Under the pieces are notes generated by a model that made no database searches, was not told the DNA's origin, and was given only the letters and a program-made list of their open reading frames with translations. Shown one piece after another: positions 33,857 through 58,035 of a DNA stretch of 64,000 bases. The DNA is from an uncultured Solirubrobacterales bacterium. GTDB taxonomy: Bacteria > Actinomycetota > Thermoleophilia > Solirubrobacterales > Solirubrobacteraceae. How positions within the stretch are numbered: the stretch's first letter is position 1; each line of letters opens with the position of its first letter. The position numbers and the translations under genes are program-made. The stretch spans positions 38,643 through 102,642 of the forward strand of contig CAVRGI010000014.1 of NCBI GenBank assembly GCA_963720665.1, in the 5' to 3' direction.

Positions 33857-35318
33857 CGCCGGGGTCGACGATCGCCTCGAAGAAGACCGCGCTGCCGAGC
33901 GGGTAGACGGCGACGCTGCCCCTCCGCAAGCGCTGTTCGAGCGCGTCGTCGCCCGCTTCCAGGTTCGCGCGCGCCTGGCTGCGCGCGACGATATTCCGCT
34001 GGCCGACGCTGTCGAGGATCCAGCGCGCGTCGGGGATCAGCTTGTTGTCGGGCAGCGAGACCAGCGGGCAGCGCTTCAGCGCCGCCTTCACTCGCGGGTT
34101 GCCGAGCGCCGCCACCAGGCCCTCGTGGAAGTCCTCGTGGTAGGCCAGCGTCGTGCGCAGGCTCGTCAGGCTGAACCTGGAGGCGGCCGACGCGCCGCCG
34201 TACACGACCAGCGCGGCGGCGGCGACCATCCACGCCTGCCGCCACCGGGAGCCGGGCTCGAGCATCGCCCAGCCCCCGATCGTGACCGCGCAGAACAGCA
34301 AGAGCACTGTTGCCGCGCCCATCAGGTAGCGGTCGATTACCGACGCCCCGGCCGCCCCCTCGGCGAGGTACACGCCGACCAGCACGGCCAGCGCCGCGAG
34401 CGGCGTGAGCGCCCGGCGCGGCGCGAGCCAAATCGCCAGCGGCACGCCCGCGAGACCCGCGAGCAGCACCGGCGTCTTGTCGATCCGCACTCCGTAGCTC
34501 CACAGCGAGGCGGCGACGCTGGTCAGCCCCTGGGTTCGTTCCAGTTCCTGGGCGAGGACGGCCGTCGAGTGCAGCGAATACAGCGGATCGCCGGTCACGA
34601 TCGTGTCCACGCACACCCAGACGACCGGCCCGATCAGCGCGAGCGCGAGGTAGCGGATGCGTCTGCCCGGCGCCGGCGCGGGCGCGCCTTGCGACCGCCG
34701 CCGCGGCCAGCAACACCACAGCCAGTACACGCCGCTCAGCACCCAGGCGTCCGGGCGCACCAGGCCGGCCGCAGCGAGCAGCAAAAAGACGGCGGCGCCC
34801 CGCCGCGGTTTCGCCACCTCGAGCGCGATCGCCCAGACGATCAGAGCCACGTAGGAGATGTCGAGGTAGCCCTGCGCCGCGAGGTTCTCGACGAAGAAGC
34901 GAGTCAGCACGAGTAGCGCGGCGAACAGCCCGACGATCGGCCCAAAGCACAGCCGCCCCAGCCGGTACATGCCTGCGACGAGCGCCACGAACGAGGCGAT
35001 CGATCCGAGCACCATCACGCGCGCGCCGCCCTGGCCGAAGATCGAGGACAGCGCCCCGAACGCGATCGCGAGCGGATGCTCGGTCGGCGCGCGGTACACG
35101 CGAAAGTCGGGCACGTTTAGGTGCAGCACGTCGCGGCCCCACAGCAGCGCGTAGAACGAGTCGTACGTCGGGTAGGTCGGGTAGAGCAGATAGCCGGCCA
35201 GCGCGCCTGCGCACATCAGCGCGAAGCCGACAATCGCCCACGTCGAGGCTCGCACGGCACGCAGCCGCTGGAGCGGCGTGGGACCCGGCCGCGGCTTTGA
35301 GATCGTAGCGCTGGCCAT
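33774..35318 (-). CDS. Polytopic membrane protein, probable GT-C glycosyltransferase
   Basis: 514 aa with at least 10 hydrophobic helices and a soluble C-terminal domain. It lies next to the GT39-like gene and diverges from a GT2 gene. The family call is tentative. Confidence 0.6.
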   Translation of the reverse strand: MASATISKPRPGPTPLQRLRAVRASTWAIVGFALMCAGALAGYLLYPTYPTYDSFYALLWGRDVLHLNVPDFRVYRAPTEHPLAIAFGALSSIFGQGGARVMVLGSIASFVALVAGMYRLGRLCFGPIVGLFAALLVLTRFFVENLAAQGYLDISYVALIVWAIALEVAKPRRGAAVFLLLAAAGLVRPDAWVLSGVYWLWCCWPRRRSQGAPAPAPGRRIRYLALALIGPVVWVCVDTIVTGDPLYSLHSTAVLAQELERTQGLTSVAASLWSYGVRIDKTPVLLAGLAGVPLAIWLAPRRALTPLAALAVLVGVYLAEGAAGASVIDRYLMGAATVLLLFCAVTIGGWAMLEPGSRWRQAWMVAAAALVVYGGASAASRFSLTSLRTTLAYHEDFHEGLVAALGNPRVKAALKRCPLVSLPDNKLIPDARWILDSVGQRNIVARSQARANLEAGDDALEQRLRRGSVAVYPLGSAVFFEAIVDPGDDPRDQIPQAGYRRIYTSHYYAVYANC

Positions 35319-42726: not shown

Positions 42727-45105
42727 TCAGCGCCTGGCGCGCTTGGCCTTAGCCATGCGCAGCGTCGCGAGGGCTTGCGTCGTGGCGCTCGTACCGGCGG
42801 GGTCGCGAGCCACGATCGTGCTGCGCACGCGCAAACGGTGTGTGTGTGCGAGCAACCGGCGCGCCTTCGCCGACAGGTGCAGCGTGAGCGCGTCCACCTT
42901 CCCGGCGCCGGCTGTGAACGAGGCGCTCGCGAGGGTCAGCACCGTGGCCCGCGCCTTCGCGACCGACGCGATACTGACCGGCCCGAACGTACGCAGCGTC
43001 AGCGTGCCCTTACAGCTGCCCACGCCGGCGGGGCATGCGACCCTGACGGTCAGCCTCCCGGATGGGCTCGCCACCAGCGAGGCGCTCGCCAGGGTGACGG
43101 TGGGCGCGCGGGGGTTGGCCGCGGGCTGGACGCTGCCCGGGAGGTTCGCCGTCAGCGGTGATTTTTCTGCTTCGCGCCTGGCCGCGGCCGCGGCTTCTTC
43201 TTCTTCCTGGTGCCTTTTGGCGGCTTCTTCTTCTTGCTTGCGTTTTTCAGCTTGTTCGCGTTCTTCCCGCTTCCTTTTCGCTTCTTCTTCTTCTTCTTGG
43301 ACCTTCCTTCTGGCTTGTTCTGCTTCGGTGAGTACTTCTACCGCGGTGCTCGACGTCCCGGTCAGGCCGTAGCTGTCGGTGACGGTCAATGTCACGAGGT
43401 AGGTCCCGGTGCTGGCGTACGTGTGCGTTGGCGCAGGCCCGCTGCTGGCAGGGCTGCCGTCGCCCCAATTCCAGCTGTAGCTGACGATCCCCACGCGGTA
43501 GGGATCTTTCGCGCTGCCGTTGAAGCTCAGTTCCGTCCCGTTGGTCGGCCGGCTGGGCGGGGCGATCACCGGGGTCGGCGACTGCGGTCTGAACGCGCCC
43601 AACCCCTTCGGCGCGCCGACGCCGGACGGCCCATCGAGACCGCCCGCGGCGTTGCAGGCCCTCGTTTCGCCGCAATCCACCTGCCCGAGGCCGGCATCCT
43701 GTTCAGCACAGCGTGCCAGCGCCTCGCCGTCGCAGTAGCCGCTGGCGCCTTCTGTGACGTCATACAGCGATGACCCGAGGTCATCGGCGTAGACCGTCAG
43801 CGCCGGATAGCTCAACCCGCCGCTGCCGCCGGCGAGGGCATAGAGCGCGGTGATCAGCGGCGTCGACAGCGACGTGCCGCCGATCGTTATCCAGCCTTTG
43901 CCGAATCCTTCGCTCGTACAGCGGCTGCCGCATTCGTCGGTGTCATAGATGTCAAAACCGGTGAAGGGATCGCCAACCGCCGAGACATCGGCCGCGAGCC
44001 GTTTGTTGCCGCAGCCGCTCGCTTGGAAGTCGGGCACGTCCTGCTGCTGCCAGGGCTGCGCTTCAAAGAGCGTGCTGCAGCCCCCGCCCGTGGCGCCTTC
44101 GGCGCTTTTGTTCTGACGTCCTTTTTTGTCGCCGACACCGTTGTTGTTCCACACGGTCTCGCTCGCGCGCGTGCCGTTTTCTTCGAGGTGAAGCGAGGTG
44201 CCCCCGACGGCCACCACGGAAGGAAACGACGCGGGCGCCTCGGGCTTGCCCGCCGCGCGTTTGCCTTCGTTGACGAGGTCCCAGTCGTAGTAGCCGTCGT
44301 CGCCGCTGGCGGCGGCGATCACGACTCCGGGATGGACATAGGCTGCCTGTTCGGCGCTTCCGAGCTGCGACTCGGGGCCGCCATAAGAGTTCGAGACCTC
44401 GGTCGCCCCGAGGGCGACCGCCTCGTTGACCCCCGCCGCGAGATCGGCGAAGGTTTCGCTGTTGGTCTCGACGAGCAGGATCTTGCAGTTCGGGCAGACC
44501 CCGTGGACGGTCTCCACGTCGAGTGCGATCTCCCCCGACCAGCCGGCTTTGTCCTGTTTGGGCAGCGACGTCGGGCTTCCGGTCTGGCCGACCTTTGCGA
44601 AGCAGCCGTTGGCGGTCGTACAGGCCGGGAGTCCGTATTGATGGTCGAATTCGGCGAGATCGCTTTCGATCTTCGGATCGTCGTACGCATCGACGATCGC
44701 GACCGTCTGGCCACTGCCGCCGCCCTGCCCTTGTTCGTATTCGTACGCTCTGGCGAGCTGCTGCGGCGTGAGGCCGCCCGCGGGGCCGGAGGAGGCGGCC
44801 CCGTCGTTTTCGGTGTAGGGCTGTACGCCGGCGCTCGTTGCTTCGCTCGAGGCCGCGGGCACGCGAAACAGGGCAAAGCAGCTGGCGTGGCCCGCGGTCG
44901 GCGCCCGACACGCGTGCCGTACCCGCGCGTAGCGGACATGCAGGCGCGGTGCAGCTTCGCTGCTCGACGCAGCCGCCAGCGCGGCCGCCAGCGCGGCGAG
45001 CAGGGCGAACGCGGCCCGCGTGCTACGCACGCCGGCGCGCATCCTGAATCTGCCCGCGCTTCTGTGAATCCGTCGGCGCATACTCCCCATGACTAGCGTG
45101 CGCAC
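42727..45105 (-). CDS. Secreted S53 (sedolisin/kumamolisin-like) peptidase with PKD domain, charged helical spacer and C-terminal domain
   Basis: A signal-like AAFALLAALAAALAAASSSEA is followed by a pro-domain, AIVDAYDDPKIESDLAEFDHQYGLP, EIALDVE and GGTSLSTP. Next come a PKD-like YSWNWGDGSP...YLVTLTVTD, an E/K/R-rich stretch of about 55 aa and an unassigned C-terminal domain of about 150 aa. Confidence 0.8.
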   Translation of the reverse strand: MRTLVMGSMRRRIHRSAGRFRMRAGVRSTRAAFALLAALAAALAAASSSEAAPRLHVRYARVRHACRAPTAGHASCFALFRVPAASSEATSAGVQPYTENDGAASSGPAGGLTPQQLARAYEYEQGQGGGSGQTVAIVDAYDDPKIESDLAEFDHQYGLPACTTANGCFAKVGQTGSPTSLPKQDKAGWSGEIALDVETVHGVCPNCKILLVETNSETFADLAAGVNEAVALGATEVSNSYGGPESQLGSAEQAAYVHPGVVIAAASGDDGYYDWDLVNEGKRAAGKPEAPASFPSVVAVGGTSLHLEENGTRASETVWNNNGVGDKKGRQNKSAEGATGGGCSTLFEAQPWQQQDVPDFQASGCGNKRLAADVSAVGDPFTGFDIYDTDECGSRCTSEGFGKGWITIGGTSLSTPLITALYALAGGSGGLSYPALTVYADDLGSSLYDVTEGASGYCDGEALARCAEQDAGLGQVDCGETRACNAAGGLDGPSGVGAPKGLGAFRPQSPTPVIAPPSRPTNGTELSFNGSAKDPYRVGIVSYSWNWGDGSPASSGPAPTHTYASTGTYLVTLTVTDSYGLTGTSSTAVEVLTEAEQARRKVQEEEEEAKRKREEREQAEKRKQEEEAAKRHQEEEEAAAAARREAEKSPLTANLPGSVQPAANPRAPTVTLASASLVASPSGRLTVRVACPAGVGSCKGTLTLRTFGPVSIASVAKARATVLTLASASFTAGAGKVDALTLHLSAKARRLLAHTHRLRVRSTIVARDPAGTSATTQALATLRMAKAKRARR

Positions 45106-47346: not shown

Positions 47347-48567
47347 TCAGAGGCCGGCGGCGGAGCGCAGAGCGTCGGTCTTGTCGATGCGCTCCCAGGT
47401 GAAGTCGTGATCGTCGCGGCCGAAGTGACCGTAGGCGGCGGTCTTCTGATAGATCGGCCGGTGCAGTTTCAACTCCTCGCGAAACGCTCCGGGCCGCAGG
47501 TCGAACACTTGCTCGACCGCCTGGGCGATCTGCGCGCGGCTCGCCCCGCGCTCGGTGCCGAAGGTCTCGACCATCACCGACACCGGGTGGGCGACCCCGA
47601 TCGCGTAGGCGACCTGCACCTCGGCGCGGTCCGCGAGCTGGGCGGCGACGATGTTCTTGGCGACCCAGCGGGCGGCGTAGGCCGCCGAGCGGTCGACCTT
47701 GGAGGGATCCTTGCCGGAGAACGCGCCGCCGCCGTGCCGGGCCATCCCGCCGTAGGTATCGACGATGATCTTGCGTCCGGTCAGTCCGCAGTCGCCCATC
47801 GGCCCGCCGATCACGAAGCGCCCGGTCGGGTTGACGAGGAAGTTCTTCAGCAGGCGGTTCTCGTCGTAGAGCGCGTGAGGCAGCACCGGGCGCAACACGT
47901 GCTCGAACAGGTCTGGCTTGATCAGCGCCTCCGCGTCGATCCCGTCGGCGTGCTGGGTGGAGATCAGAATCTTCTCGATCGCCACGGGCTTGCCATCCCG
48001 ATAGCGAACCGTCACCTGGGTCTTGCCGTCCGGACGCAGGTAGGGCAGCACCTCGGCCTTGCGCACCTCGGTGAGGCGCTTGGCCAGCTTGTGCGCGAGC
48101 GCGATCGGCATCGGCATCAGCTCGTCGGTCTCGCGCGCCGCGTAGCCGAACATCATCCCCTGGTCGCCCGCGCCCGCGGCGTCGAGCTCGTCTTCGTCGG
48201 AGGGGTCGTGACGGGTCTCATAGGCGGCATCGACGCCCTGGGCGATGTCGGGCGACTGCTTGTCGATCGCGTTGATCACCGCGCAGGTTTCGCAGTCGAA
48301 GCCGTAGTTGGCGTCGTCGTAGCCGATCCTGCGCACCGTCTCGCGCGCGATGTGCTGGATGTCCACGTAGGTCTTCGTCGAGATCTCGCCGGAGACGACG
48401 ACCAGTCCGGTGTTGACGAGCGTCTCGCAGGCGACGCGACCGTAGGGATCGTCGCGCAGCACGGCATCGAGCACGCCGTCGGAGATCTGATCGGCGATCT
48501 TGTCCGGGTGTCCCTCGGTGACGGACTCGGAGGTGAACAGGAACTCGTGCTCGTCGTGCTGGCTCAT
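47347..48567 (-). CDS. metK: S-adenosylmethionine synthetase
   Basis: 406 aa with [28 protein letters not shown] and [16 protein letters not shown]. Confidence 0.97.
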
Positions 48568-48639
48568 GTCGGAACTCGGCTTCGCGATCGCTAGCGGGAT
48601 GACCAGTTTGTGGACCGGCGCTCAGAAAGCCGGGAGAGT

Positions 48640-50049
48640 CTATCCACGTGAGCTCGCACGTCCGGAGCTCCGCCGGCGCCGGCGCTTGGGCCCGGTGGCT
48701 TGGCGGGCGCTGTCGCGTCCGCGGCGCCCGCGCTCCACGAAGTCGATGATCAGCGGCACGCCGTCCATCCCGTAGCGCGCGCGCAGGCGATTCTCGAGGA
48801 AGTAGGCGTAGTCGCGGGTGACGCGCGTGCGCGAGTTGACCTGGATCGCAAAGCGCGGTGGACGCTCGCCGACCTGGGCCATATAGAGCAGCTTCAGCCG
48901 GTGCTGCCCCGAGCCACGGCGCGTCCCGACCGGGGGCTGGCGGGCCTGGACGGTCTCGCCCAGGAAGCGGTTGAGCTCGGGCGTGGGGATGCGTCCGGCC
49001 ATCCGGTCCCCCAGCGCGATCGCCTCGCTCAGCAGGCGACCGACGTGGCGACCGGTCTTCGCGCTGGCGGTCAGCACGCGCGGGCGCAGTCGCAGCTTCT
49101 GCGCGACCTTCGCGCGCTCGTGGGCGAGCTCCTCTTCGCCGCCCTCGTGGAGGTCCCACTTGTTCAGGACCAGCGCCGTCGCGCAGCCCGATTTCATCGC
49201 CAGCTCGGCGATCCGCTGATCCTGGGCGGTGACGCCGTCGCGCGCGTCGCAGACGACGAGCGCGACGTCGGCCCGCTCGGCGGCGCGGCGGGAGCGCAGC
49301 GAGGTGTAGTACTCGATCGCATCCGAGACCTTCGCCTGGCGGCGGATACCCGCCGTGTCGATCAGGATCAGCTCGCGCCCGTTGACGAGCAGCGGCGTGT
49401 CGATCGCGTCGCGTGTGGTGCCGGCGCGCTCGGAGACGATCGTGCGGACTTCGCCGAGGAAGCGATTGACCAGCGAGGACTTGCCGACATTCGGGCGGCC
49501 GATCACCGCCAGGCGGACGGCGTCGTCCTCGCCGTGCTCCTCCGCTTGATCCCCAAGCTCGCTCAGCCGGCTGACGATCCGATCCAGGAGGTCGCCGGAA
49601 CCGAGACCTTGAGCGGCCGAAACCGCCAGCGGCTCGCCCAGCCGGAGCCGGTGGAAGTCCGCGGCCAGCGGGATGTCGGCTGCGCCATCGCACTTGTTCG
49701 CGGCGACCAGCGCCGGCGCCGAGGACCGGCGCAGCAGATCGGCGATCTCCTCGTCGCCTGCTCGCAGGCCCGCGCGCGCGTCGACCACGAGCAGCGCGAG
49801 CTGCGCGTCGGCGAGGCCGGCGCGGACCTGATCGCGGATCGAGCCCGACAGCGGGTCTGGGGCGCGGAAGTCCACGCCTCCGGTATCGATCAACACGAAG
49901 CGCAGGCCGTTCCACTCGCACTCGATCTCGTTGCGGTCGCGGGTCACGCCCGGGCGCTCATGCACGACCGCCGCGCGGGTGCCCGCGAGACGGTTGATCA
50001 GCGAGGACTTGCCGACGTTGGGATAGCCGACGACCGCGACCTTCAGCAT
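48640..50049 (-). CDS. der: Ribosome-associated GTPase Der (EngA)
   Basis: From the ATG at 50049: [16 protein letters not shown], a second G domain GRPNVGKSS, a KH-like C-terminus and an Arg-rich tail. The 643-aa ORF was trimmed. Confidence 0.95.
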
Positions 50050-50693
50050 CAGGCCAGTATGCCGCGCGCGCGCAGGAGCGCGATGATGCGCTGGACCGCC
50101 TCTTGCGGGCTGAGCTCGGTCGTGTCCAGGATCACGGCGTCCGCGGCGGGCTGCAGCGGACTGTGCTCGCGCGCCGAGTCGCGCTGATCGCGCAGCGCCT
50201 GCTCGGCGAGCACCGCGCGCGGGTCGGCGCCGAGCTCGCCGGCGCGCCGCTGCGCGCGGACGCGCGGATCGGCGGTGAGGAACACCTTCAGCTCTGCGTC
50301 GGGCGCGACGACCGTGCCGACGTCGCGACCCTCGGCGACCCAGTCGCCGGCGGCGAGTAGCGCGCGTTGCTTTTTCACGAGCACGCGGCGTATGTTGGGG
50401 TCGGCGGCGAGCTGGGAGGCCGCCTCGGAGACCTCGCGGGCGCGAATCGCCTCGGTCACGTCCTCGCCGCCCAGCAGGACGTGCACGGGCGAATCGGGCC
50501 CGGCTTCGCGGAACGCGACCTCGGCGGCGCGGGCGAGCGCGGCGGGATCGCTGTCGGGCGCGCGCAGCCACAGCAGCGCGACGCAGCGGTACAGCGCGCC
50601 GCTGTTGAGATAGGTGAATCCGAGCCGGGCGGCGAGCGCGCGGGCGATGGTCGACTTGCCGGCGCCCGCGGGCCCGTCGATCGCGATCAGCAT
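50049..50693 (-). CDS. cmk: Cytidylate kinase
   Basis: 214 aa, [15 protein letters not shown]. Confidence 0.95.
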
Positions 50694-52909: not shown

Positions 52910-53947
52910 TCAGACGGCGCTGAGGGCCTTCCCGGCGAGCGTCGCGGCGCTTTCCACGGCCGAGGCGTACTCGGCGAACGAGTCCGCGCGCAGCGCCTGG
53001 GGGCCGTCGCAAACGGCCTCCTCGGGGTTTGGATGGGTCTCCACGATCACGCCGTCGGCGCCGATCGCGGCGGCCGCCAGCGACAGCGGCTGCACCAGCT
53101 CGCGCCGCCCGGCGGCGTGGCTGGGATCGACGACGACCGGCAGGTGCGTGAGCTCCTTGAGGATCGGCACCGCCATCAGGTCGAGTGTCACGCGGCGATG
53201 ATCGGTCTCGAACGTGCGGATCCCGCGCTCGCAGAGCATCACGTTGGGATTGCCTTCCTTGAGGATGTACTCGGCGGCCATCACCAGCTCATCCAGCGGA
53301 GCAGCGAGCCCGCGCTTGAGCAGCGCCGGACGCCCGGCGCGCCCGATCTCCGACAGCAGCGGATAATTTTGCATGTTGCGCGCGCCGATTTGAATCACGT
53401 CCGCGACCTCCAGAACGGCATCGAGGTCGCGGATGTCCATCAGCTCGGTCACGACCGGCAGGCCGGTTTCGGCCTTCGCCTCGGCGAGCAGACGCAGGCC
53501 CTCCTGGCCGAGGCCCTGGAACGCGTACGGGGAGGTGCGCGGCTTGTAGGCGCCGCCGCGAAACATCGACGCGCCGGCGTCGTGCACGACGCGCGCGGTC
53601 TGCAGGGTCTGCTCGCGCGATTCGACGGTGCACGGGCCGGCGATCAGCGCGAAGTGCTCGCCGCCGATCAGACGGCCGTCGATATCAAGGACGGTGCGCT
53701 CGCCATGCGTGAACTGCAGCGAGGCGAGCTTGTAGGGCTTGAGGATCGGCACCACGCGGTCGACGCCCGGCTGCCCCTCGAGCCCGAGGCTTTCGACGCT
53801 CGCATCCTGCTCGACGTCGCCGATCGCTCCGAGCACCGTCACGCGCGCGCCCTTGCTGCGATGGACACGCGCCCCAGCTCGTTCGATCTTCTCGACGACC
53901 GCGTCCACCTGGTCGGGCGTCGCGGTCTCCTTCATTACGATCATCAT
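52910..53947 (-). CDS. aroF: 3-deoxy-7-phosphoheptulonate (DAHP) synthase, type I-beta with an N-terminal ferredoxin-like regulatory domain
   Basis: 345 aa with an N-terminal ACT/FL-like domain of about 70 aa, then GPCTVES...[18 protein letters not shown]...DPSH. An AAGGA Shine-Dalgarno lies 7 nt upstream. Confidence 0.9.
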
Positions 53948-53995
53948 CGGATCATCCTTTCACCTGCGCATGGAATGGTAAGTCCTGCTGGCGTG

Positions 53996-54014
53996 AAAAT
54001 GGCGCTTGCGCACC
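53996..54014 (-). terminator. Candidate attenuator terminator hairpin (GGUGC-GCAA-GCGCC followed by AUUUU)
   Basis: Minus-strand ggtgcgcaagcgccatttt forms a 5-bp GC-rich stem with a GNRA-type loop and a short U tract. It lies about 50 nt upstream of the DAHP synthase ATG. Confidence 0.4.
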
Positions 54015-54096
54015 GAGTTCTGTGGCGCTCTATCCCAGGACTGGGATCCGGTGCGGCCGCTGCAGCCCGCTCACGGACGGGCTCAGGCCGGAGCGC

Positions 54097-54180
54097 CTAG
54101 ATAAATCGCCAGGTGAAATAGGCGCAGGACGACCGCGCGATGCGGGTGCTCCGAGAAGATGTACGTTCGCAAGCGGACAT
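54097..54180 (-). CDS. Candidate 27-codon leader peptide MSACERTSSRSTRIARSSCAYFTWRFI
   Basis: It runs from the ATG at 54180 to the TAG at 54097-54099. The last seven sense codons are TAT TTC ACC TGG CGA TTT ATC (Tyr Phe Thr Trp Arg Phe Ile). It lies in the 313-nt spacer upstream of the aromatic biosynthesis genes. Confidence 0.45.
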   Translation of the reverse strand: MSACERTSSRSTRIARSSCAYFTWRFI

Positions 54181-54260
54181 GGCCGTCTGCAGGTCTTTGT
54201 AGCAGATCAACGGCGCTTAGTCGAGCGCGAGGAACGATGCCCGGCCGAGCGCCCGCGCGC

Positions 54261-55340
54261 TCACAGCGTGTCGGCCAGGGCCTGCACGAAGCGCGCGTTC
54301 TCCTCGGGCGTGCCGAACGTGACGCGCAGCGCGGGCGTGTCGCTGCCGAGGGCTTGGCCGCCGCGGACGAGCACGCCGCGCTCCTGCAGCCCTTGCATGA
54401 CCTGCAGCTCGTCGCGCTCGCCGAGATCGATCCAGCAGAAGTTCGCCTGCGAGTCGGCGACCCTCAGCCCGAGGGCGGGCAGCTCCTCGAGCAGCGAGAT
54501 GCGCTCGGCGACGGTCCTGGCCACGCGGTCTTCCACCTCGTCCTGGTGGGCGAGCGCCTCCACGGCGGCCGTCTGGGCGAGCGCGTTGCAGAAGAACGGC
54601 TGGCGCACCTGGTTGACCGCGCGGGGAAGCTCCTCGGAGCCGCACAGGGCGAAGCCGACCCGCAGGCCGCACAGCCCGTACACCTTCGAGAACGTGCGCA
54701 GCAGGACGACGTTGGGGTGAGCGCGCAGCAGCCCGATCGAGCATTCGGGATCGCCGAGCAGGTTGAACTCGCAGTAGGCCTCGTCGATGACCACGCACAC
54801 GTGTGCCGGGACCTCGGCGACGAACGCGGCGATGTCGGCGAGCGGGAGCGCCGTCGAGGTTGGATTGTTCGGATTGCAGACGATCGCCAGGCGGGTGGCG
54901 ACGGTGATCTCGCGCAGCATCGCCGGCAGGTCGTGGCGCAGCTCGGCGTCGAGCGGCACGGTGATCGCGCGCGCCCCCGAGGCGGCGGCGAGGTGCGGGT
55001 AGACCGAAAAGGACGGCCACGCGTACACGAGCTCGGCGCCGGGCTCGAGCAGCGCCTCGCCGGCGGCGAGCAGGATGTCGCAGGAGCCGTTGCCGACCGC
55101 GATCTGCGCGGCGGGCACTTCGTAGCGCTCGGACAGGCGCTGGCGCAGGATCGAGCTCTCCGGGTCGGGGTAGCGGTTCAGCGAATCGAGCGCGCGGTCG
55201 ATCGCGGCCCGCACCGGCGCGATCGGTGGATAGGGCGACTCGTTGCTGGCCAGGCGCACGAGCGGCGCCTGCTCGGCGTAGCCGCCGGCGGCTGGGTAGG
55301 AGGGTATGCGCCGGATGCGCTGCGCGAACTCGATCGCCAT
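54261..55340 (-). CDS. hisC: Histidinol-phosphate/aromatic aminotransferase
   Basis: 359 aa, a class II aminotransferase with PLP-Lys motif TFSKVYGLCGLRVGF, in a Bacillus-like hisC-tyrA-aroA context. Confidence 0.9.
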   Translation of the reverse strand: MAIEFAQRIRRIPSYPAAGGYAEQAPLVRLASNESPYPPIAPVRAAIDRALDSLNRYPDPESSILRQRLSERYEVPAAQIAVGNGSCDILLAAGEALLEPGAELVYAWPSFSVYPHLAAASGARAITVPLDAELRHDLPAMLREITVATRLAIVCNPNNPTSTALPLADIAAFVAEVPAHVCVVIDEAYCEFNLLGDPECSIGLLRAHPNVVLLRTFSKVYGLCGLRVGFALCGSEELPRAVNQVRQPFFCNALAQTAAVEALAHQDEVEDRVARTVAERISLLEELPALGLRVADSQANFCWIDLGERDELQVMQGLQERGVLVRGGQALGSDTPALRVTFGTPEENARFVQALADTL

Positions 55341-55380: not shown

Positions 55381-55752
55381 TTATTGCGCGGACTCGAGGT
55401 CGGTGCGCAGCGTCGCCGCCTCGCCGAGGTAGACGTGCGCGGGCTCGTGGCCTTCGTCCGCGTGGTAATGCAGCAGCACCCTGATCACCCGTGGCAGCGA
55501 GCCCGGAACGGCGATCTCGCGCGCGCACAGCAACGGCACCCGCTCGAACCCGAGACCGCGGGCTGCGACCGCCGGGAACTGCGCGTCGAGCTCGTCGGTG
55601 ACCGTGAAGATGCAGCTGACGACGTGCTCGGGCGTCAGCGAGTTGCGCTGCATGATCGCACGCAACAGCGTGGCGGTCGCGTCGAGGATCGCCTGAGACT
55701 CGTTCTCGGGCACCGTGATCGCACCTCGCAGAGCGAAGAGTCGTTGCGCCAT
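55381..55752 (-). CDS. aroH: Chorismate mutase, AroH type
   Basis: From the ATG at 55752: MAQRLFALRGAITV..., 123 aa. The longer ORF was trimmed. Confidence 0.85.
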   Translation of the reverse strand: MAQRLFALRGAITVPENESQAILDATATLLRAIMQRNSLTPEHVVSCIFTVTDELDAQFPAVAARGLGFERVPLLCAREIAVPGSLPRVIRVLLHYHADEGHEPAHVYLGEAATLRTDLESAQ

Positions 55753-55781
55753 GGCGGCGATTCTGGCAGAGCTCGCGCGGG

Positions 55782-56483
55782 TCAGCCGGCGCCCGCGCGC
55801 AGGCGCTCGATATCGGCGGCGCTGAGGCGGCGATAGCAGCCGGGCGCGAGCCCTTCGATCGACAGCGGACCGAACGCGACGCGCTCGAGCGCGAGCACCG
55901 GATGGCCGACCGCCTGGCACATCCGCCGCACCTGGCGGTTGCGCCCTTCGCGGATCGTCAGCTCGAGCACGTCGCGCCGCACCCGGCGCACGCGGGCGGG
56001 GGCGGTCGGCCCGTCGTCGAGCTGCACGCCTCGCTGCAGGGCCCGCAGCGAGGCCTCGCGCACCGGCCCGCCGGCGACGCGGACCCGGTAGGTCTTCGGG
56101 ACTTCATAGCGCGGATGGGTGAGCCGATTGGCGAGCTCCCCGTCGTTGGTGAGCAGGATCAGCCCGGTCGAATCGGCGTCGAGCCGGCCGACCGGATACA
56201 GCCGCAGCCCCGGCGCGGGCACGAGACCGACGACCGTCGGGCGGCCATGGGGATCGCGCGCGGTCGAGACGACCCCTGCGGGCTTGTTGACCGCGTAGGC
56301 GACCCTGCGCGGGCCCCCGGCGAGCAGGCGGCCGTCGAGCTCGACGCGGCTGTCCGCACGCACATCGCGCGCGGGATCGGTCACGAGCCTACCGTCGATC
56401 GACACGCGTCCTTCGGCGATCAGCGTCTCGGCGGCCCGGCGCGAAGCGACGCCGGCATCGGCGAGATGCTTGGCGAGGCGCAT
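55782..56483 (-). CDS. rluB: Pseudouridine synthase (RluB/RsuA family)
   Basis: 233 aa with an S4 domain (MRLAKHLADAGVASRR) and the catalytic VGRLDADSTGLILLTNDG. Confidence 0.85.
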   Translation of the reverse strand: MRLAKHLADAGVASRRAAETLIAEGRVSIDGRLVTDPARDVRADSRVELDGRLLAGGPRRVAYAVNKPAGVVSTARDPHGRPTVVGLVPAPGLRLYPVGRLDADSTGLILLTNDGELANRLTHPRYEVPKTYRVRVAGGPVREASLRALQRGVQLDDGPTAPARVRRVRRDVLELTIREGRNRQVRRMCQAVGHPVLALERVAFGPLSIEGLAPGCYRRLSAADIERLRAGAG

Positions 56484-57194
56484 CTAGGCAGCAGGCGGTC
56501 CGCTCCCGGAGCGGGCATCGCCCGCGCGCAAGAGCCGCTCGCGCAGCTCGGCACGCTCGTCGGGAGTCGGATCCCAGCGCGCGACATCGGGCAGCTCCTG
56601 CAGCGAGCGCAGGCCGAACAGCTTCAAGAAGAGCGCGCTCGTCCGATACATGATCGCGCCGAACTGCGAGCGTCCCGCCTCCTCGATCAGGCCGCGCTCG
56701 AGCAGCGTGCTCGAGGCGGAGTCGGCGCTGACGCCGCGGATGCGCGTGATCTCCGGACGCGACACCGGTTGCAGGTAGGCGACGATCGCGAGCGTCTCGG
56801 CCTGCGCAGGGGTGAGCGTGCCGGCGCGCGGGCGGTTGAGCAGCCGTCGCGCGGCGTCGTCGCTGGCCGCGTCGGTCGCGAGCGTGAAGCCGCCGGCCAG
56901 CTCGCGCAAGACGATCCCGCCGGCGCCCGGCGGGTAGCTTTGGGCGAGCGCCGCGAGCGCCTCCTGCACCTCTCCCTGATCGAGCTGCGCCGCATCGGCG
57001 AGCTCGGCGACGCTGAGCGCATCGGAGGAGAGGAAGAGCAGCGCCTCGATCGTTCGCGCCGGCGCGACGGCGCCCCCGCCCCCCGGCGTCGCCGCCACCC
57101 GGATCTCGCCGTTGGCGCCGAGGTCGGGCGGCGCGATCTGCTCGATCGGCCGATCCCCGTCGCCGCCGTTCGGCGCGGCGGCGGAATCGCTCAT
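56484..57194 (-). CDS. scpB: SMC-Scp complex subunit ScpB
   Basis: From the ATG at 57194 (ATGA overlap with scpA): ...IEALLFLSSDALSV...LAIVAYLQPVSRPEITRIRGV... Confidence 0.9.
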   Translation of the reverse strand: MSDSAAAPNGGDGDRPIEQIAPPDLGANGEIRVAATPGGGGAVAPARTIEALLFLSSDALSVAELADAAQLDQGEVQEALAALAQSYPPGAGGIVLRELAGGFTLATDAASDDAARRLLNRPRAGTLTPAQAETLAIVAYLQPVSRPEITRIRGVSADSASSTLLERGLIEEAGRSQFGAIMYRTSALFLKLFGLRSLQELPDVARWDPTPDERAELRERLLRAGDARSGSGPPAA

Positions 57195-57952
57195 CGCGCC
57201 GCCTCCGCGAGCGCGGCGGGCTGCCGCGCCGCCGGCGCGCTGATCGCTATCTCGCCGAAGCACTCGGACTGGCGCCAATCGGCTTCGCCGCACTTGTACA
57301 GCTCCAGCAGCGCGAACAGGGTCACCGCGATCGTCATCCTGTCGGCGCCGCGCACGGCGTCGTCGAAACTGAACGCGCCGCGGAGCAGCAACCGGCGCAG
57401 GTGCGCCAGGCGCTCGGCGACGCTCACGCGCGGGCTGGCGAGGTGGCGCAGGCTGATCGAGGGCGGCACCGCGAGCAGCCGGCCGATCGCATCGCCCAGG
57501 ACCTCGGGATCGTGGGTGCCCTCGCGCAGCTGAATTTGGGTGCGGCGCAGGTGAGCGGGGGGCGGCACTTCGCGAAACCGCGTGCCGCGCTCGCGCGCGA
57601 GCAGCTCCTTGAGATGACTCGCGGCAGCCCGGTAGCGGCGGGCGTCGAGCATCCGCGCGAGCAGCTCCTCGGCCGCCTGCTCGGGCTCGAGCTCGGCCAG
57701 CTCCTCGTCCTCCTCGTTGGCGAGCATCAGCCTGGACTTGAGCTCCAGCAGCGCGGCGATCAGGACGATGAACTCGGTCGTCGCCTCCAGGTCGAGCTCG
57801 CCGCGTGCCTCGAGATGATCGAGGTAGGCGAGCACCACGTCGGCGAGCGCAAGCTCGAGCAGGTCCACCTCTTCGCGCAGGATCAGCGCCAGCAGCAGAT
57901 CGAACGGGCCGCTGAACACGTCGAGGTCGAGATCCAGCGCGGTGATCGTCAT
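57191..57952 (-). CDS. scpA: Segregation and condensation protein A (kleisin)
   Basis: 253 aa, LDVFSGPFDLLLALILREEVDL... Confidence 0.9.
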   Translation of the reverse strand: MTITALDLDLDVFSGPFDLLLALILREEVDLLELALADVVLAYLDHLEARGELDLEATTEFIVLIAALLELKSRLMLANEEDEELAELEPEQAAEELLARMLDARRYRAAASHLKELLARERGTRFREVPPPAHLRRTQIQLREGTHDPEVLGDAIGRLLAVPPSISLRHLASPRVSVAERLAHLRRLLLRGAFSFDDAVRGADRMTIAVTLFALLELYKCGEADWRQSECFGEIAISAPAARQPAALAEAAR

Positions 57953-58035
57953 CGAGCTGCCCGGGCCTCGGTCCGCGCGTCCCCCTCAGCACAGGCGCAC
58001 GACGCGCCGCAACCCTGAACCGCAGCATCGGTCAT

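Follow-up and report, generated by a model that had tools for sequence, protein, structure and literature searches.

We analysed a 64,000-nucleotide (nt) stretch of contig CAVRGI010000014.1 from an uncultured Solirubrobacterales bacterium of the lineage Thermoleophilia, hereafter the window, and in it the leader region of the gene for 3-deoxy-D-arabino-heptulosonate 7-phosphate (DAHP) synthase, the committed entry step to phenylalanine, tyrosine and tryptophan synthesis. The gene (52910-53947, minus strand) encodes a type I-beta enzyme (NF006421, PF00793) with an N-terminal ferredoxin-like domain (PF18152, residues 1-70), as had been read from the DNA alone in the original prediction, and is followed 3' by tyrA, aroA and cmk. 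Between its ATG (53947-53945) and the stop codon of a hisC-like gene (54263-54261) lies a minus-strand spacer of 313 nt. These coordinates and the G + C content, 0.62-0.65 in the spacer and 0.72-0.78 in the flanks in a window of ~72%, bear out the earlier description of an AT-richer spacer of that length. All on the minus strand, the spacer holds a leader open reading frame (ORF) of 27 codons and a TAG stop, MSACERTSSRSTRIARSSCAYFTWRFI (54097-54180; ATG at 54180, TAG at 54099-54097), found exactly where it had been predicted; a structured domain that abuts the stop codon (54024-54097); a small hairpin with a pyrimidine-rich tail (53992-54014); and a purine-rich region that runs into the DAHP synthase gene's Shine-Dalgarno sequence. 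Close to its end the ORF contains the putative regulatory aromatic codons Tyr21 TAT, Phe22 TTC, Trp24 TGG and Phe26 TTT (54103-54120, minus strand).

With the DAHP synthase protein as query, 80 loci were retrieved at 59-90% identity, nearly all of them in metagenome-assembled genomes of Solirubrobacterales/Thermoleophilia. A small ORF equivalent to that of the window and ending in [W/Y/S]-R-F-x-stop was present in 63 of 81 upstream regions, and with it recurred the aromatic end and the helix that follows the stop codon. The nucleotides around the stop, TGGCGATTTAtcTAGGCG (54094-54111, minus strand; Trp-Arg-Phe-x-stop and the first helix bases), recurred without change in 57 of the 80 genome loci, with a single copy in each as in the window, and a scan of metagenome contigs with this 18-mer box found at least 120 stretches. 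Among the matches listed, 70 stretches have an I-beta enzyme downstream, ~30 have a type I-alpha DAHP synthase (TIGR00034, aroFGH) and a handful are chance matches. The I-alpha-linked leaders (loci L101, L109, L110, L158 and L189, for example) are of the same kind, with ends such as FSYFWRFS and LTYWYWRFS. The leader family amounts to at least about 170 members in soil actinobacteria (63 plus at least about 100 metagenomic loci). As the leader precedes two classes of DAHP synthase, the element is tied to the enzymatic step rather than to a single gene lineage. The locus L019, which has a typical leader and a DAHP synthase 78% identical to that of the window, carries the record label 'Chlamydiae bacterium'; its contig is probably mis-binned.

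In loci where the promoter motif and ATG can be recognised, the ATG is in frame and the frame stays open through to the WRFx stop in 100 of 105 cases, with ORF lengths ranging from 14 to 46 codons and an unconserved N-terminus that varies freely in length and sequence. Family-wide, the Tyr/Phe/Trp fraction is 24-56% at positions -5 to -11 compared to 1.6% in the rest of the ORF towards the N-terminus. Among the aromatic residues, Tyr is the commonest and Trp is always present, as in the leader ends SYWSFRCAWRFS, YAYAYAWRFS and RYYWYWRFT of relatives, and at the variable aromatic positions both TAT and TAC, and both TTT and TTC, are used. The codons TTT, TAT and CGA, which had been thought to look rare in this genome, are indeed minority codons (12.5%, 32% and 13.5%, respectively, in seven genes of the window) but not very rare ones. 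Judged by comparison of the sequences, the maintained frame and the aromatic enrichment are the mark of a translated leader in which selection acts on the aromatic codons. Conservation, frame maintenance, positional aromatic enrichment and a dedicated promoter together back the proposal of an aromatic leader peptide in front of DAHP synthase, and we consider it likely that the leader is a translated sensor of aromatic aminoacyl-tRNA supply.

The dedicated promoter is of the sigma-70 type. Its extended -10 element, TGcTACAAA (54196-54204, minus strand), belongs to a motif conserved in the family, TG[CG]T[AT]NA[ACT], the end of which lies 7-17 nt from the leader ATG, and its -35 element, TCGACT (54219-54224, minus strand), is located 17 nt upstream of the -10. 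A -35 hexamer with at least four of six matches to TTGACA, 16-18 nt upstream of the -10, was found in 74% of 120 loci compared to 3% at random leader positions; relatives have, for example, TTGCCR or TCGACG, then 17 nt, then TGcTACAAA. From the promoter-ATG spacing, the transcript would start near 54188 and have a 5' untranslated region of ~8 nt, and such a short region would explain why the leader has no Shine-Dalgarno sequence, which the original prediction had counted as a weakness. In several relatives the stop codon of the hisC-like gene falls between the leader -35 and -10. A consensus terminator and promoter scan of the spacer gave just one chance match, in antisense orientation, at 54173-54190.

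A second, -10-like hexamer of the form TAnnnT (TACCAT, 53975-53980, minus strand) is located 27 nt upstream of the DAHP synthase ATG. TAnnnT at 23-34 nt before the start codon occurs in 89 of 150 loci, with 31 expected, and the composite of TAnnnT and CCAGG occurs in 45 of 150 loci, with 1.3 expected. No -35 element above background and no TG extension were found for it. L058, a locus without the leader ORF, keeps the hexamer about 31-37 nt before its DAHP synthase ATG. It may be a second, basal promoter or part of an RNA pairing.

The minimum-free-energy fold obtained with RNAfold (ViennaRNA) contained every helix of the original prediction at its coordinates. On the minus strand, P1, the proposed 1:2 pairing, joins GGCGCUC (54097-54091) to GAGCGCC (54030-54024) and encloses an inner helix, P1x (54090-54086 with 54058-54054), and two hairpins, P1a (AGCCCG/CGGGCU, 54083-54064) and P1b (AUCCCA/UGGGAU, 54047-54032), in a domain of -41.4 kcal/mol (z = -2.2). 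It is followed by the GNRA-looped hairpin P2 (GGUGC-GCAA-GCGCC, 54014-54001; -8.8 kcal/mol, z = -2.4), the proposed terminator, and by the pyrimidine-rich tail AUUUUCACG (54000-53992), of which AUUUU (54000-53996) is the first part. The signal in the single sequence is modest (z = -1.1 for the whole spacer), and the comparison with relatives carries the case. P1 is 8-15 base pairs (bp) long in 141 of 150 loci, starts at the G of the stop codon and shows double compensatory changes from CU:AG to UC:GA (GGCGCUCGG/CCGAGCGCC versus GGCGUCCGG/CCGGACGCC). For the window's clade, covariation was tested on a 23-sequence MAFFT alignment for P1, P1x, P1a, P1b and a pseudoknot between the P1a loop (CGUGAG, 54070-54075) and the tail (UUCACG, 53997-53992; minus strand). 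In these five helices 93.3% of the cells were paired, compared to ~40% with the partners slid, 12 pairs had changed on both sides, and none of 500 shuffles reached the observed value. The compensatory changes in relatives show that segments 1 and 2 and both inner hairpins are real.

The pseudoknot itself, seen in the window's clade only, was paired in 89% of the cells, its central pair being U-A in 10, U-G in 6 and C-G in 3 sequences, and GCGAG loops accompany CUCGC tails. In place of the AUUUU/AUUUUCACG tail of the window, relatives have YCUCACGG, a pseudoknot strand that pairs with the P1a loop. P2 also covaries within the close clade. The interior of P1 differs between clades, with a three-way junction in the window's clade and simple hairpins of 31-60 nt elsewhere. 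A covarying downstream partner for the 3' strand of P1, either the proposed 2:3 pairing or the CCAGGCG box, was not found (cognate -12.7 versus permuted -12.8 kcal/mol, z = +0.9), in a test in which P1 itself, as the positive control, gave about z = -10. P1 with its inner hairpins is thus a constitutive pseudoknotted domain and not a switch arm.

A further pairing brackets this domain and joins the leader codons to the region of the DAHP synthase Shine-Dalgarno sequence. In the window (minus strand), the 5' strand of this base stem lies inside the leader ORF (54110-54128) and is UUUCACCUG (54118-54110) or, alternatively, CCUGCGC (54128-54122); the 3' strand, GCGCAGGUGAAA (53969-53958), lies in a region (53955-53969) that overlaps the Shine-Dalgarno sequence GAAAGGA (53961-53955). 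UUUCACCUG pairs with CAGGUGAAA (53966-53958) over 9 bp at -16.6 kcal/mol (p = 0.025 versus shuffles) and reaches the first Shine-Dalgarno bases. In many loci CGCCUGG, comprising the codon before Trp and the Trp codon, faces CCAGGCG ~20 nt upstream of the DAHP synthase ATG. The two strands change together: ACC-UGG is found with CCAGGU (the window, L015, L039, L044 and L162, with one exception) and GCC-UGG with CCAGGC (24 loci), according to a manual tally. Between codons -7 to -4 and the region before the ribosome-binding site, the mean complementary run was 5.19 in cognate and 4.81 in permuted combinations (z = 4.8, 0 of 500). Codons -10 to -3 pair with the last 65 nt at p <= 0.05 versus shuffles in 25% of 150 loci, and the significant duplexes mostly stop 0-7 nt away from the start codon and therefore span the Shine-Dalgarno sequence; examples are GCUUCUCCUA:UAGGAGAAGC in L060 and GUCCUUCGC:GCGAAAGGAC in L039.

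The complementarity is specific to the locus. Codons -11 to -4 pair with the Shine-Dalgarno window (20 nt before the start) at a mean of -11.2 kcal/mol. In the comparisons, an upstream segment of the ORF reached -9.2 (p = 5e-6), shuffles -9.9 (p = 7e-4) and leaders from non-cognate loci -10.05 (z = -5.7, 0 of 200). In partition-function calculations on truncated RNA, the accessibility of the ribosome-binding site was 0.41 in the ribosome-free state and 0.47-0.48 with a ribosome on the leader 3' end (p = 7e-12), and it was 0.406 with the native and 0.440 with a shuffled leader end (p = 2.5e-4). A second helix of fixed register, GUCGUCCU with AGGAUGAC as in L003, was rejected, as the register was not kept in an 11-sequence alignment. 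A second recurrent nucleotide motif, UGGUCGU (Trp-Ser-x), occupies codons of about -8 to -11 in many close relatives and corresponds to the 54130-54150 region of the window, which has CGGUCGUCC at that place; in L003, L001 and L160 it pairs with AGGAUGA of the Shine-Dalgarno region. By inspection, some I-alpha loci (L101-type sequences) have an 11-bp stem, CCUACUUCUGG with CCGGAAGUAGG, that adjoins the ribosome-binding site.

Taken together, the data point to a ribosome-mediated attenuator of the leader-peptide kind whose output is most likely translational and does not depend on a terminator. The dedicated promoter would give rise to a transcript with a short first ORF, in which Tyr, Phe and Trp codons near the end precede the invariant Trp-Arg-Phe-x-UAG. 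When charged aromatic tRNAs are plentiful, ribosomes would complete the leader and leave, and the vacated pyrimidine-rich 3' part of the leader could then pair with the purine-rich region up to and including the DAHP synthase Shine-Dalgarno sequence (UUUCACCUG with CAGGUGAAA here). The P1 domain, P2 and the pseudoknot would act as a clamp under the base stem that keeps both strands close, and translation of DAHP synthase would be damped. When Tyr-, Phe- or Trp-tRNA is scarce, a ribosome would stall on the aromatic codons and cover the anti-Shine-Dalgarno strand, and the ribosome-binding site would be freed. The element would thus most likely tune DAHP synthase to the supply of aromatic amino acids. 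We favour translational attenuation because the covariation pattern resembles that of the LEU element of actinobacteria, and we infer leader translation, stalling, and the direction and level of the effect, on translation and not on transcription. To the full model we give a probability of about 0.5.

Several observations weigh against this model. The effects in the folding calculations are small, and a ribosome stalled upstream made no difference compared to one at the stop codon (accessibility 0.50 versus 0.48). Taken one by one, only a quarter to a third of the loci have a significant base stem, and in many the pairing breaks off 5-8 nt before it would reach the Shine-Dalgarno sequence. As all the statistics were obtained on related sequences, the permutation z-scores are inflated and independence is overstated. 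Transcription from the conserved TAnnnT, which lies between leader and gene, could bypass the control. The nucleotide invariance of CGAUUUA..UAGGCG is also not accounted for by translational attenuation. Finally, folding with stalled-ribosome constraints, a check that the original prediction had proposed, did not show a Shine-Dalgarno switch between the stalled and the terminating state; at equilibrium, full transcripts with ribosome-footprint constraints gave spurious long-range pairs and no systematic change at the Shine-Dalgarno sequence between these states.

The invariance extends over 16 bases (UGGCGAUUUA..UAGGCG), that is, TGG-CGA-TTT-A[G/T]C-TAG-GCG, in which no synonymous change was seen: Arg is always CGA (13.5% of Arg codons in the window), Phe always TTT (12.5%) and the stop always TAG. 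At the peptide level, W is present in 99 of 100 ends and R and F in 100 of 100, at a fixed distance from the UAG, and the final position is variable (S, I, T, R or L). As CGA, UUU and UAG are as invariant as WRF, the constraint cannot be assigned to the peptide. Variants without Trp (Ser in L052 and L053, Ala in L055, Tyr in L060) retain the nucleotide core CGAUUUAGCUAGGCG; in L055 it is the otherwise invariant Trp that Ala replaces. L049 keeps UGGCGAUUU, about 150-180 nt upstream of its DAHP synthase, and has lost the stop codon and the helix. Among the pairings examined, none explained the invariance. Pairing of GAUUUA with TAnnnT fits the TAAGAT and TAGRRT types and fails for TAACAT, TACCAT and others, which leaves the invariance unexplained. 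A hairpin inside the box, H0, is weak in the window (-3.9 kcal/mol, z = -0.6), and since both its arms are invariant it gives no covariation readout. Read-through, frameshifting or hopping at UUU-AGC-UAG was also rejected: there is no slippery heptamer, and on inspection the downstream indels across relatives are not multiples of three. The resemblance of GGCGAUUUAGCU to a tRNA 5' end was followed up with ARAGORN, which found no tRNA-like gene. It is conceivable, though rather improbable, that the box and the helix starting at the last base of UAG form a specialised module. The ribosome or a release factor might recognise it, to pause termination in a programmed way or to arrest the nascent chain at Trp-Arg-Phe in response to free aromatic amino acids, or an RNA-binding protein might recognise it instead. 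The element would then hold two sensors, one for tRNA charging at the aromatic codons further upstream and one for another signal at the stop codon, and would be a regulatory RNA class of its own and not a variant attenuator.

The position of the leader ribosome could instead govern termination before DAHP synthase that is Rho-dependent or occurs at a hairpin without U, in the manner of tna or of what has been proposed for the cys leaders of mycobacteria, a precedent discussed in PMC1262725. The leader is conserved and a canonical terminator is absent, the linkers after P1 are short, C-rich and G-poor, and canonical terminators are not enriched in the window as a class (17 found versus ~15.5 expected from shuffles). 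We nevertheless regard this route as unlikely: the C-rich stretches are just ~8-12 nt long and unconserved, the region is highly structured and so disfavours Rho loading, and the covariation of leader codons with the Shine-Dalgarno window would be left unexplained. Textbook terminators with a hairpin and a U-tract do occur in the window, at 34789-34806 (minus strand), 44780-44804 (plus strand) and 44092-44106 (plus strand).

The original prediction had invoked the logic of the E. coli trp and pheA operons, in which a stalled ribosome melts 1:2, 2:3 forms, and termination at 3:4 and AUUUU is prevented. All four segments exist in the window, where 3:4 (P2) is followed by four U, and the GGCGC/GCGCC boxes permit 1:2, 2:3 and 3:4 in 13 of about 23 close relatives, counted by reading the sequences. 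These 13 are the relatives in which P2 reads GGGCGC/GCGCCC; where P2 covaries to GGGAC/GUCCC or GGGGC/GCCC, the 2:3 pairing is gone. Just 28 of 150 loci have a U-rich pentamer anywhere from the leader stop to the ribosome-binding site, and outside the window there is essentially no hairpin that runs straight into such a pentamer; that of the window has 5 bp and 4 U, and a stem and U-run of this size fall short of the reported requirement of mycobacterial RNA polymerase. Moreover, the 3' strand of P1 lacks a covarying downstream partner, the P1 domain (-41 kcal/mol) is far more stable than a 5-bp 2:3 helix, and the tail after P2 is conserved as the partner in the pseudoknot. Of the predicted attenuator, the 1:2 helix and the inner hairpins therefore stand through covariation, and the 2:3/3:4 terminator mechanism fails on conservation and is quite unlikely.

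A structured RNA that binds a protein or ligand, riboswitch-like or of the kind suggested for the LEU element, with the box and the pseudoknotted domain as the sensor and the ORF as secondary, would account for the 16 bases that are invariant without synonymous change, and it would suit the compact fold, in which a three-way junction, a pseudoknot and a base stem come together; the box is also an imperfect inverted repeat (GCCUGGC-GAUUUA-GCUAGGC). However, the P1 interior is not conserved between clades, so that they share no common aptamer, the maintenance of the ORF frame and the positional aromatic enrichment are hard to explain without translation, and the putative box hairpin is the weak H0. 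Rfam 15 gave no match at the gathering score in the whole window, and at E <= 10 there were, in 53800-54400, only two chance-level matches to eukaryotic families and no T-box, Phe, Trp, His, Leu or Thr leader or riboswitch; the element is absent from Rfam 15. This explanation is decidedly improbable. Nascent-peptide arrest, in which Trp-Arg-Phe-x and UAG would stall the terminating ribosome, possibly via free aromatic amino acids like TnaC with tryptophan, fits the near-invariant W, R and F at a fixed distance from the UAG and the very stable helix that begins at the stop codon. It is very unlikely, as selection on the peptide predicts synonymous variation and none was seen, the variants lacking Trp keep CGAUUUAGCUAGGCG, and the upstream, positionally loose aromatic codons suit tRNA sensing better. 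The absence of any cis-regulation, with ORF and hairpins as a separate unit ended by hairpins without U and DAHP synthase transcribed from TAnnnT only, or with the inverted repeat as a DNA operator, is highly improbable even though TAnnnT is enriched at a fixed distance and kept in the leaderless L058, because the hexamer has neither a -35 nor a TG extension, the bases 3' of it covary with leader codons and so place both on one RNA, and the element goes strictly with DAHP synthase, in two classes of the enzyme.

Translational attenuation by an aromatic leader has its nearest relatives in known systems by description. In the LEU element of actinobacterial leuA, a leader ORF is combined with a pseudoknot and with a base stem that joins Leu codons to the Shine-Dalgarno sequence (Seliverstov et al. 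2005, PMC1262725); the mechanism of that element was left unresolved there, and the authors favoured a protein. Both elements have an upstream ORF with regulatory codons near its 3' end, both occur in the same phylum, and both have a conserved pseudoknot, which here is that of the window's clade. The present element differs in that the codons are aromatic and not Leu, the gene is for DAHP synthase and not leuA, and the invariant 16-base box is its own, as is the helix with its first base at the end of the stop codon; compared by description, it would work alike without being a member. The E. coli trp and pheA attenuators share with it a leader peptide with end-product codons and sensing via ribosome position. 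In contrast to them, it has no conserved terminator and no conserved 2:3 antiterminator, its stop-proximal helix is constitutive, and one leader carries codons for all three aromatic amino acids. As in the translational attenuation of ermC, cat and cmlA, a ribosome stalled on the leader would open a helix that masks the downstream ribosome-binding site. In those systems, however, the stall depends on an antibiotic and the nascent peptide, whereas here scarce aminoacyl-tRNA would cause it, and the mask here is a helix that bridges a folded domain over 150-300 nt, whereas theirs is a local hairpin.

To our knowledge, RNA-level control of DAHP synthase is experimentally known solely from Corynebacterium, where it is exerted by aroR. 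The original prediction had named this precedent correctly: according to PMC11802643 and PMC4046766, aroF of Corynebacterium glutamicum is preceded by the leader aroR, which carries Phe-Tyr-Phe. In the accounts given by these papers and PMC7356990 of the work of Neshat et al. (2014), the reported response was to Phe and not to Tyr; the control of aroR-aroF is presented there as a response to limitation of aromatic amino acids, and in one group's description aroR is a translational regulatory leader. So far as these accounts describe it, the C. glutamicum system resembles the present one in having a short leader peptide with consecutive aromatic codons directly upstream of an actinobacterial DAHP synthase gene, and the ~30 members that, among the matches listed, precede an I-alpha (AroFGH) enzyme are like aroF in this respect as well. 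They differ in that aroR reads Phe-Tyr-Phe, whereas here Tyr is most frequent and Trp always present, and in that the present lineage is Thermoleophilia, at ~72% G + C in the window; the likeness is again one of description only. A survey from 2005 of actinobacterial amino acid leaders lists none for phenylalanine or tyrosine genes (PMC1262725), and several Streptomyces leader peptides are followed by hairpins without a U-tract (PMC8079986). After aroR, the leader family would be a second and much larger example of RNA-level control of DAHP synthase, with codons for all three aromatic amino acids on one leader, layered on an enzyme with an allosteric domain. It would also be a well-populated addition to the poorly understood terminator-less leaders of actinobacteria (the LEU element and the cys, thr and met leaders), and its many natural variants make the pairing of codons with the Shine-Dalgarno sequence directly testable.

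Some neighbouring genes in the window also deserve mention. The gene 3' of cmk encodes a Der/EngA GTPase (48640-50571, minus strand); the listed ORF overlaps cmk, and its true start is probably near 50050. A 567-residue ORF that overlaps it (48218-49921) has no family match and is probably spurious. In a 514-residue ORF (56484-58028, minus strand) the match to ScpB is confined to residues 325-486, and the long N-terminal extension is without a family match. Between rluB and the hisC-like gene lies an AroH-type chorismate mutase (55381-55920, minus strand; PF07736 at ORF residues 63-175), and the hisC-like gene itself may encode an aromatic aminotransferase. With the chorismate mutase in place upstream, the aromatic cluster reads chorismate mutase, aminotransferase, leader, DAHP synthase, tyrA and aroA.

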